Below are positions 1 through 1,372 of a stretch of 1,372 nucleotides of DNA, in pieces. This DNA comes from a phage: the sequence record OR846000.1, one strand, 5' to 3'. A model generated the notes under the pieces. That model did no database searches and was not told the origin of the DNA. It was given only the letters and a program-made list of their open reading frames with translations. The position numbers were made by a program, and so were the translations under genes. Position 1 is the first letter of the stretch. Every line of letters starts with the position of its first letter.

Positions 1-214
1 CTCCCTGATATATGCCATGTGGATGATCATTGATAAATTGATGTGGGGAAACCCTGTTCCTGGTTATCCTTCGCTTATGACCGCGATTCTCTTCTTAGGC
101 GGCATCCAGCTTATCGGCATAGGCATCATGGGTGAATATATCGGACGCGTTTACACGGAGGTAAAGCAAAGGCCTCGCTATATCGTGAAAAACAAAAAAA
201 CAATGATGGAATAA
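1..214 (+). CDS. gtrB: C-terminal end of a bactoprenol glucosyltransferase (GtrB-like, family-2 glycosyltransferase); 5'-partial, CDS continues upstream of the window
   Basis: The reading frame is open from position 2 (SLIYA precedes the track's Met at 17) to the TAA stop at 212-214, so the ATG at 17 is internal, not the true start. The translation ...[54 protein letters not shown] matches the characteristic C-terminal membrane anchor and GEYIGR(V/I)Y...RP.Y motif of GtrB/ArnC-type polyprenyl-phosphate glycosyltransferases. This is recognised from memory, not from a database search. Confidence 0.85.
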
Positions 215-229
215 TGATGGAATAATGAT
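203..229 (+). repeat. Perfect 11-bp tandem direct repeat (unit ATGATGGAATA, two full copies plus a 5-bp partial third) spanning the gtrB stop codon and the downstream start codon
   Basis: Read directly: 203-213 ATGATGGAATA, 214-224 ATGATGGAATA, 225-229 ATGAT. The gtrB stop TAA (212-214) is built from the end of copy 1 plus the first base of copy 2; the downstream ATG (225-227) is the first three bases of the partial third copy. Confidence 0.9.
216..221 (+). promoter_or_regulatory. Possible weak Shine-Dalgarno-like element (GATGGA) for the downstream gene; translation probably coupled to gtrB termination
   Basis: A GGA at 219-221 lies 3 nt upstream of ATG 225 and 12 nt upstream of ATG 234. 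The match to AGGAGG is poor and the spacing is not ideal for either start. The 10-nt gap between the gtrB stop and the next ATG suggests co-transcription and coupling rather than an independent strong RBS. Confidence 0.3.
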
Positions 230-1372
230 TACTATGCTCAAGATATTACCGAAAACGGCGATGATACTACTGGCTTTTTTGGCCATTTTTCTTATTGAAT
301 GGTATACCCCCATTCACTCTGATGATTACCGCTATTACCTTTTAGGAATTTCGCCGGAATCACATTTTCATCATTATATGACCTGGAGTGGCAGGATTAT
401 AGCTGATTACACCAGCGCACTTATCCTGTATACACGTTCTCAACTCGTGTATTCCATCAGCGCTGCCGTTTCGACACTGGTATTTTGTTATTTCATTGTG
501 AAGACACCCTCAGGTACATTACGCTGGAATAAATCCGACTACTTATTATTCCCACTAATATTCTTCACTTACTGGATTTCGAACCCGAATTTGGGTCAAA
601 CCACTTTCTGGATCGTTGGTGCTGCGAATTATTTGTGGACGAATCTGTTCGTTGTTGCATGGCTGTTCTTCTTTTACACCATAACAATAAAAAACAGTAA
701 AGCGATCAGCCCGTGGGTTGCATTACTAAGCTTTATGGCAGGCTGTTCCAATGAAAGCGTCTCACCTTTCGTCTCGCTTATTTCTGTTCTGGCCATTGCA
801 TACGAGTTATGGCAAAACAAATCTGTTTCGCGCAATAAGATAGTTTATAGTCTCTGTGCAATCGCAGGTTCATGCGTATTGATACTTTCTCCGGGCAATT
901 TCATCCGCGCCAGCGGCAAAGAATTCTGGTATGGAAGGCCGATTTTTGAACGTATTTTCATTCACTTAACAGAACGCGTTCATAACCATCTGGCGCTGAT
1001 CTGGATAGCTTATGTTGTTTTGTTATTGCTGGTCTTACTGGTCATATTCAATAAGCAGATTCGCGCCAAAATTGATAAAACGTCCCTTATCTGCGCTGCG
1101 TTAGTCGTATGTATAGGTATTAGCACTTCCTTAATTATGTTCGCGTCGCCGTCCTACCCCGATCGGGTTATGAACGGTACGTTTATGTTTTTCCTTTTAG
1201 CTATCTCCTTCATCGCTTACGCCCTGTTGAAAAGTGGCGTTAAGGCTGGAGTCGTCGGCGTAACTGCCGTGACTGTCCTCTGTGGTATCGTATTCCTTTG
1301 GTCCTATTCATTGATGCTTAACGGTTATAAAAAAACGGCCGGACAGGAAATCGTAAGACAAAAAATCATTAC
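225..1372 (+). CDS. Polytopic inner-membrane glycosyltransferase, most likely the serotype-specific O-antigen glucosyltransferase of a gtr cluster (GtrC / Gtr type-specific, GT-C-like); 3'-partial, continues beyond the window
   Basis: Hand translation in the frame of ATG 225 gives 382 sense codons with no stop to the window end (last complete codon 1368-1370). The protein begins MITMLKILPKTAMILLAFLAIFLIEWYTPIHSDDYRYYLLGISPESHFHHYMTWSGRIIADY... and contains about 10-11 hydrophobic segments of 16-25 residues separated by short loops (for example aa 11-26, 73-91, 106-118, 127-151, 181-196, 205-221, 254-275, 286-306, 318-335, 340-361). Its position immediately downstream of gtrB in the same orientation is the canonical gtrA-gtrB-gtr(type) arrangement. 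The start is uncertain: ATG 225, ATG 234 or ATG 261 are all in frame; 225 is the first ATG after the in-frame stop at 204-206. Family assignment is by synteny and architecture, not by a recognised named homolog. Confidence 0.7.
   Translation, partial: MITMLKILPKTAMILLAFLAIFLIEWYTPIHSDDYRYYLLGISPESHFHHYMTWSGRIIADYTSALILYTRSQLVYSISAAVSTLVFCYFIVKTPSGTLRWNKSDYLLFPLIFFTYWISNPNLGQTTFWIVGAANYLWTNLFVVAWLFFFYTITIKNSKAISPWVALLSFMAGCSNESVSPFVSLISVLAIAYELWQNKSVSRNKIVYSLCAIAGSCVLILSPGNFIRASGKEFWYGRPIFERIFIHLTERVHNHLALIWIAYVVLLLLVLLVIFNKQIRAKIDKTSLICAALVVCIGISTSLIMFASPSYPDRVMNGTFMFFLLAISFIAYALLKSGVKAGVVGVTAVTVLCGIVFLWSYSLMLNGYKKTAGQEIVRQKII

Follow-up and report, generated by a model that had tools for sequence, protein, structure and literature searches.

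Family IV GtrC of Salmonella, a probable GT-C membrane glycosyltransferase: analysis of a gtrB-gtrC junction in record OR846000.1

Described relatives of the transferase

The GtrC proteins of phages epsilon34 and HF4s and the STM0557 protein of Salmonella are relatives, with assigned activity, of the transferase analysed here. Epsilon34 GtrC (gp20) belongs to family VIII and brings about O:34 conversion, the phage shifting the serotype from 3,10,15 to 3,15,34; the linkage formed is Glc-alpha1-4-Gal. In a lysogen of coliphage HF4s, whose host is E. coli 4s, glucose was located by NMR at O-4 of GalNAc, and a shift on LPS gels was not visible. The products of STM0557-0559 add alpha1-4 glucose to the backbone galactose (GtrC family III, O:12-2) (PMC3688519).

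We compared these systems with the protein encoded in a stretch of 1,372 nucleotides, hereafter the window. When this protein was searched by tblastn against 50,697 phage records, only four relatives were found, namely epsilon34 GtrC, HF4s GtrC and two weaker ones, and both GtrC proteins match PF19528, as the window protein does. Epsilon34 GtrC is 31% identical (E=4e-67, residues 14-444) and is encoded after gtrA-gtrB, but it has 551 residues with an unrelated C-terminal part, and it comes from a P22-like podovirus in which it adjoins the tailspike gene. HF4s GtrC is 30% identical, has 410 residues and is without the C-terminal domain. Among Salmonella proteins, 546-residue Typhimurium sequences match PF19528, are 32-34% identical over about 430 residues and keep the motif PxHSDDY, but their C-terminal region cannot be aligned with that of family IV GtrC. 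We denote these proteins as STM0557-like and not as STM0557, since one of them lies in a P22-like prophage beside the tailspike gene and not in SPI-16. They are encoded after gtrAB and are 37-41% identical to epsilon34 GtrC, which fits the 30-40% given for STM0557 and epsilon34 GtrC by Villafane et al. 2008. The STM0557 locus itself lies in SPI-16, undergoes Dam/OxyR phase variation and has proven activity, whereas family IV occupies another locus and does not vary in phase.

The original prediction had proposed GtrII, GtrV, YfdI and Salmonella GtrC families among its comparators, and a sequence relationship with GtrII, GtrV, YfdI or P22 GtrC was not detectable by BLASTP or Pfam. The BLASTP E-values of P22 GtrC, SfII GtrII, SfV GtrV and K-12 YfdI against the window protein ranged from 0.078 to 24, and these four proteins were also absent from the tblastn results in the phage collection. 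P22 GtrC and SfII GtrII match PF14264, a family that the window protein does not match, and neither SfV GtrV nor K-12 YfdI has a Pfam family. Shigella phage matches were likewise absent among the 50,697 phage records, and GtrI, GtrIV and GtrX were covered solely through this search. What P22 GtrC, GtrII, GtrV and YfdI have in common with family IV is the operon slot and a presumed three-step logic based on undecaprenyl-phosphate-glucose.

Gene identity and operon setting

In the classification of Davies et al. 2013 (PMC3688519), 59 gtr operons of Salmonella fall into ten GtrC families, members of one family being more than 96% identical and different families less than 46% similar. Here gtr STM_II belongs to family IV, which alone occupies locus 4 (the P2 site); Table S1 of the same work lists LT2_II as STM4206-4204 (PMC3688519), and S. 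Infantis gtr S1326/28_III is also a member. Searching the phage collection with the window DNA, we obtained two records. The first is OR850955.1, a 4.2-kb 'UNVERIFIED_ORG' record with S. Kentucky as host (99.9% identity, one mismatch), and the second is a contig of S. Infantis SARB27 (98.3% identity). The window protein is identical to that of OR850955.1 and differs at 2-3 of 382 residues from 515-residue proteins of Typhimurium, Infantis, Senftenberg and Rissen (at least 99% identity), which places it above the 96% amino acid identity of family IV. The gtrA, gtrB and gtrC genes of SARB27 are annotated as equivalents of LT2 STM4206, STM4205 and STM4204. The assignment to STM4204 therefore goes via the SARB27 annotation, the Typhimurium members of the cluster and Table S1 and not via the LT2 sequence itself, as a scan of genome contigs for STM4204 returned orthologues from other species only, with LT2 not among them. 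From the 2-3 residue differences and the listing in Table S1, the downstream part of the window is, by sequence, the first 382 residues of family IV GtrC, orthologous to LT2 STM4204.

As such, the gene was already known and the window contributes no new gene. The suggestion that the allele might be unrecognised or uncharacterised does not hold, given the at least 99% identity to the four Salmonella proteins and the existing name of the family. An identity above 90% to a characterised transferase had been named as the sign of a known allele; family IV is indeed known and has been tested by experiment, but the outcome was negative and yielded no specificity. The original prediction was right that a serotype cannot be read from this sequence. 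An E. coli origin, or an allele of YfdI, was considered and rejected, a distant search having matched yfdH at the gtrB end alone (67-70% nucleotide identity); megablast against 5,426 complete E. coli genomes gave no match to the gtrC part.

Table 1. Positions of the annotated features in the window
Feature	Position (strand)	Basis
gtrB 3' end, last 70 codons; stop TAA 212-214	2..214 (+)	translation, NCBIfam, phrog_841
11-bp tandem unit ATGATGGAATA, two copies	203-213 and 214-224 (+)	repeat search and SARB27 alignment
family IV gtrC, orthologous to STM4204; first 382 of 515 codons	225..1372 (+)	
GAT GAT = D33-D34, invariant acidic pair, candidate catalytic motif of the putative first periplasmic loop	321..326 (+)	

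The gtrC frame is open from ATG 225-227 through 382 codons to the end of the window (Table 1), and it was missing from the listing of open reading frames because it runs past that end. Full-length gtrC encodes 515 residues (OR850955.1 1830-3377). The window carries 74% of it, comprising nearly the whole membrane domain, and the C-terminal beta-rich domain (about residues 390-515) falls outside. Translation could instead begin at ATG 234-236 (Met4), the position at which the 512-residue orthologues of other genera start. The upstream part encodes the end of GtrB, the bactoprenol glucosyltransferase, a GT2 protein that is 100% identical to the 309-residue GtrB of OR850955.1, matches the C-termini of polyprenyl-phosphate glycosyltransferases in NCBIfam (PgfS, ArnC) and matches phrog_841 'GtrB-like O-antigen conversion'. 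Salmonella DNA has a GC content of about 52%; that of the window is 39-46%, below this figure, which fits acquired DNA. An Rfam scan of the window gave no match. On the antisense strand of the window, no open reading frame exceeds 72 residues.

At the junction of the two genes, 10 nt separate the gtrB stop from ATG 225, and this gap is produced by the 11-bp tandem duplication at 203-224. The duplication also creates a mini-ORF of three codons, from ATG 214 to TAA 223-225, which again overlaps the gtrC ATG. When Infantis SARB27 was aligned to the window, an 11-nt gap appeared in place of the duplication, and in the Infantis SARB27 and Senftenberg loci the end of gtrB and the start of gtrC overlap with one base in common. 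The duplication is thus carried by the window allele and the S. Kentucky-associated OR850955.1, in contrast with the family IV loci of Infantis and Senftenberg. All family IV operons in Table S1 of Davies et al. span 2833 bp (PMC3688519), and this uniform length implies that the genomes surveyed in 2013 lack the duplication as well.

The gtrA, gtrB and gtrC genes adjoin one another in SARB27 (Infantis), in OR850955.1 and in the Senftenberg contig, and the 3' end of gtrB lies inside the window, so gtrC holds the third position of the operon, that of its variable gene, as had been predicted. In SARB27 the three genes are flanked by the baseplate V gene on one side and by gpW, J, I and the tail-fibre genes on the other, within the remnant of a P2/Mu-like prophage, and the Senftenberg contig has the same order of gpV, gtrABC, gpW-J-I and tail fibre. 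The window itself is too short to include the flanks; downstream of gtrC in OR850955.1, gpW is identical to the Senftenberg gpW. In Salmonella, a defective P2-like prophage carries the family IV operon as a cargo insert within its tail/baseplate module. The presence of gtrC genes in such defective P2-like prophages had been noted by Villafane et al. 2008 for serovars among which are Kentucky and Typhimurium. Outside Salmonella, gtrA-gtrB stands immediately 5' of gtrC in seven of eight related loci of other Enterobacteriaceae, and in Enterobacter, Siccibacter and one further member of the Enterobacteriaceae the three genes of the cassette form an islet of their own amid housekeeping genes, outside any prophage. 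In the region 5' of gtrA, which lies outside the window, OR850955.1 and SARB27 have one GATC as against four in P22, in agreement with the published absence of phase variation from the family IV operon.

Protein family, predicted fold and selection

PF19528 (DUF6056), for which the cut-off is 27 bits, is matched by the window fragment with E=4.5e-58 and 197.5 bits and by the full protein with 210.8 bits. The family has been renamed GT_STM0557_N in a newer Pfam release. More than 100 homologues of the window protein were found. In an alignment of 65 sequences reaching down to 19% identity, 19 residues are invariant, including D33 and D34 as well as P29, Y51, W54, G56, R57, E177, P223-G224-N225, R228 and R314.

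To describe the fold, we used an AlphaFold2 model computed with the 65-sequence alignment (pLDDT 95.2, pTM 0.93). The model shows a helical membrane domain up to about residue 387, followed by a beta-rich C-terminal domain, which is predicted to be periplasmic. Helix 2-26, the first transmembrane helix, is followed by short helices at 32-40 and 44-53, and D33-D34 come directly after helix 2-26. When only the C-terminal domain was modelled from its single sequence, the pLDDT was 49.7 and the model was unusable. In a Foldseek comparison with the PDB, STT3 ranked first with a weak E-value of about 6e-3. A profile search of the sequences of solved structures returned noise alone (E of at least 0.56), and a fold search of BFVD gave no P22 or Shigella phage Gtr protein, its sole real match being an Oenococcus phage protein. 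The model supports a GT-C fold with a multi-helix membrane domain. As in GT-C enzymes, acidic residues of what seems to be the first extracytoplasmic loop are conserved, and this loop would lie on the periplasmic side. Considering their conservation and their place in the model, D33-D34 are the candidate catalytic pair. GT-C enzymes with polyprenyl-phosphate sugars as donors (PMT, ALG, AftB, ArnT, STT3/PglB) share 7-11% sequence identity with the window protein and act on other acceptors.

Some gtr clusters have an acetyltransferase in the third position. This is so for GtrC family II, the other GtrC family that was still an orphan in 2013 and that later work identified as an acetyltransferase, and the positional precedent is what speaks for reading the window protein as an acyltransferase-3 O-antigen acetyltransferase like GtrC family II or OafB. 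However, the protein has no match to PF01757 (acyltransferase-3) at E<=1, while the SfII acyltransferase SfII_25, included as positive control, matches it with E=2.2e-12. The 382 residues contain no RxxR motif, the predicted fold is GT-C, and an intact gtrB accompanies the family IV gtrC, unlike family II. The profile, motif and fold evidence refutes the acetyltransferase reading, and we give it a practically negligible probability. The original prediction of a protein resembling glycosyltransferases and not acyltransferases is borne out by PF19528, the lack of PF01757 and RxxR, and the predicted GT-C fold. As for the profiles it had proposed to search, the acyltransferase-3 profile did not match, as anticipated, but neither did the GtrII-like PF14264, and PF19528 was found instead.

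To see how the gene is maintained, we compared its alleles and orthologues. Between two orthologue loci, L003 and L004, dN/dS is about 0.10. Against the orthologues of other genera, pS is about 0.8, synonymous sites being saturated, and pN is about 0.11-0.31 over the membrane domain and 0.20-0.37 over the C-terminal region. Salmonella alleles show few differences, 6 of them synonymous and 2-3 nonsynonymous. At 90% identity the cluster comprises 3227 member sequences, with GtrB proteins mixed in. By these sequence comparisons, gtrC of family IV is maintained under purifying selection, and taken together with the PF19528 score and the more than 100 homologues they indicate that the reading frame did not arise by chance. 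The downstream membrane transferase was thus correctly recognised in the original prediction.

Proposed mechanism and candidate acceptors

The identity of the gene, its family, its fold as modelled and its operon context are established by this analysis, whereas the donor, the catalytic residues and the acceptor are what we infer. In the proposed route, GtrB would make undecaprenyl-phosphate-glucose at the cytoplasmic face, GtrA would flip it to the periplasmic face, and GtrC would use D33-D34 in the first periplasmic loop to move glucose onto a hydroxyl group in a glycan of the envelope. Conserved adjacency of gtrA-gtrB lends support to the proposed use of a polyprenyl-phosphate donor by GtrC. 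Overall, the family IV protein, the orthologue of STM4204, is very probably a GT-C membrane glycosyltransferase of the PF19528 family, which would use the three-step Gtr route.

The operon has been tested by experiment. When family IV was expressed constitutively from the chromosome, no LPS ladder shift was seen in Typhimurium ST4/74 or Infantis S1326/28 (Davies et al. 2013, PMC3688519). A fusion to the Infantis family IV operon showed low promoter activity (177 Miller units), and in Choleraesuis the gene is interrupted by a premature stop (PMC3688519). Carriers of family IV belong to serogroups B, C1 and C2, the O units of which are chemically unrelated (Davies et al. 2013, PMC3688519), and this spread argues against one single O-unit acceptor. 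In a deletion screen in Typhimurium 14028, delta-STM4204 was scored as 'reduced swarming only', which is the result of a single screen, and delta-STM0557 swarmed faster in the same screen. A literature search for a later functional assignment of STM4204-4206, family IV or DUF6056 found none.

These results could be accounted for if the enzyme is active on a glycan that the carrier serovars have in common, such as the LPS outer core with its galactose or ECA, and not on the O-antigen repeat. Such an acceptor would explain both the negative ladder-shift assays in two serogroups and the spread of the family beyond chemically similar O units. The orthologues of other genera point the same way, as stand-alone islets with gtrAB in Enterobacter, Citrobacter, Leclercia and Siccibacter encode proteins of 52-77% identity and presumably meet other O antigens there, and the swarming phenotype concerns a surface-dependent behaviour. 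The Salmonella cassette also sits in a P2-like tail module, and for phages of the P2 type the LPS core is the typical receptor. A gene of the GT9 heptosyltransferase family lies 3' of gtrC at L003, but at that locus only, with an IS110 transposase in its place at L004, and we rejected this neighbour as evidence for a link to the LPS core, one locus being too weak a basis. Against a shared glycan, a hexose added to the core in stoichiometric amount would probably displace all bands on Tricine gels, an effect that was not reported. Furthermore, all PF19528 relatives with assigned activity modify an O unit, and the negative gels carry little weight because the glucose added by HF4s gives no visible shift either. 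An acceptor other than the O antigen is a conjecture to be reckoned with, but we consider it rather unlikely. We are also doubtful of the more specific idea of an undecaprenyl-phosphate-glucose GT-C system for lysogenic conversion that is aimed at the core receptor of P2-like phages, or at ECA. If true, decoration of the core or of ECA would explain the spread over serogroups and genera and the absent ladder shift.

Alternatively, the operon might be a silent passenger of a decaying prophage in Salmonella, intact by descent and with no fit acceptor or meaningful expression. The lack of a detectable modification even under a constitutive promoter, the low activity of the native promoter, the absence of phase variation with one GATC in place of the four of P22, the premature stop in Choleraesuis and a degraded copy in Symbiopectobacterium all lean this way. 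However, the few differences among Salmonella alleles are mostly synonymous, the protein is strongly conserved over genera with its invariant residues all intact, thousands of sequenced isolates have kept the gene along with a gtrAB pair of its own, and a swarming phenotype is on record for delta-STM4204. This conservation and the phenotype make a silent passenger less likely, and we regard it as quite improbable.

Our best guess for the acceptor is an LPS-associated sugar that would be glucosylated at a low level or in a form invisible on gels. We favour an LPS sugar modification that the gels missed because HF4s shows that such a case exists. As HF4s GtrC is active with no gel shift, inactivity of family IV does not follow from the negative result that was published. 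By analogy with the characterised relatives, the glucose would go to O-4 of a residue with galacto configuration.

The gtr operons create O-antigen diversity, which affects serotyping, vaccine design and the escape from phages and IgA, and family IV is among the most widespread of those in Salmonella, occurring in Typhimurium, Infantis, Kentucky, Newport, Heidelberg, Agona and other serovars. The acceptor of family IV is an old question and a real one, which the window alone does not make more tractable. Taken all together, the question is sharpened to that of a GT-C enzyme with an intact putative catalytic signature under purifying selection, the relatives of which glucosylate galactose (STM0557) or O-4 of GalNAc (HF4s).

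The gtrB/gtrC junction and the start of gtrC

At the junction between gtrB and gtrC, the window carries an 11-bp tandem duplication, which is also present in OR850955.1, the Salmonella Kentucky-associated record. The duplication was missing in the Infantis SARB27 and Senftenberg loci, and there the gtrC ATG overlaps the gtrB stop codon (TAATG). Since the duplication restores the stop/ATG overlap, now behind a three-codon mini-ORF (MME*), translational coupling between gtrB and gtrC may be relayed via the mini-ORF rather than lost. The duplication probably originated by slippage between ATGAT repeats on its flanks.

The start codon of gtrC in the window is ambiguous between two candidates. The 512-aa orthologues from Citrobacter, Leclercia, Enterobacter and others start at the position of Met4, that is, at the second ATG, and the equivalents of codon 1 in these orthologues are non-start codons.

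Coordinates and settings of the features discussed
Feature	Position	Remarks
11-bp tandem duplication, ATGATGGAATA x2	window 203-224	gtrB/gtrC junction
Two possible gtrC starts	window 225-236	ATG 225 (MITM...) and ATG 234
phrog_34335 match	window 2-1370	PHROGs search
OR850955.1	L002 1-4183	4183 bp
80-aa hypothetical gene	L002 212-452	upstream of gtrA
GtrC C-terminal beta-rich periplasmic domain	full-protein residues about 386-515; L002 2985-3374	beyond window end
gtrABC islets	about 4700-7550 of each locus	L003, L004, L006, L008, L009
L003 islet flanks		TonB-dependent receptor, MFS transporter, icd
L006 islet flanks		MCP, alcohol dehydrogenase
L008 islet flanks		yciC, ispZ, yciA-tonB
L009 islet flanks		solute-binding protein, GGDEF protein
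gtrC homologue, Salmonella enterica strain s1 (CP191473.1)	L007 6001-7548	60% identical
gtrA, gtrB and gtrC matches, Symbiopectobacterium MAG	L010 4934-7529	broken pieces

Settings of gtrABC in related loci

In other Enterobacteriaceae (L003, L004, L006, L008 and L009), family IV-like gtrABC forms a bare three-gene islet and is not inserted in a prophage. These islets are flanked by housekeeping genes, and neither a tRNA nor an integrase was found within 6 kb of them. A GT9 heptosyltransferase-family gene lies 0.6 kb downstream of the islet in L003, and its place is taken by an IS110 transposase in L004. The gtrC homologue of Salmonella enterica strain s1 is located near tail-fibre genes and a hexapeptide-repeat transferase gene. 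With no gtrA or gtrB upstream, it would have to depend on GtrA and GtrB borrowed from another operon. In the Symbiopectobacterium MAG, all three gtr matches are broken and lie in different frames, and the locus looks like a decaying gtr operon in a symbiont genome.

OR850955.1 (L002) is named 'Salmonella phage S.Kent 1-2-1', is flagged UNVERIFIED_ORG and contains gtrABC together with the gpW gene of a chromosomal P2-like remnant. The record is probably host DNA of the Kentucky propagation strain, not the genome of the isolated phage. The 80-aa hypothetical gene is intact in the Infantis and Senftenberg loci; in L002 its matches were limited to two pieces, with 75% and 90% identity, that overlap and differ in frame, and it may be frameshifted there.

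Annotation, spread and C-terminal domain of GtrC

The 825-position profile phrog_34335, labelled 'GtrB glycosyltransferase', spans both GtrB (positions about 240-306) and the window GtrC (311-692) in a single model. Furthermore, 309-aa GtrB proteins are mixed into the 90%-identity cluster of the window GtrC (that of protein P0001). Gene calls fusing gtrB and gtrC evidently exist, and automatic annotation can give the window GtrC a wrong GtrB label.

Matches to PF19528, the Pfam family of the window GtrC, extend past Gram-negative bacteria to include Enterococcus and Lachnospiraceae proteins, and the sole convincing BFVD structural match was an uncharacterised protein of Oenococcus phage phiS13 (E=6e-11).

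Compared with the closest genera, the nonsynonymous difference proportion (pN) was 0.20-0.25 in the C-terminal domain versus 0.11 in the membrane domain, which represents about twofold faster evolution. This domain of family IV GtrC cannot be aligned with the GtrC of phage epsilon34, and HF4s GtrC does not have the domain. It is plausible that the C-terminal domain of GtrC is an acceptor-recognition module.
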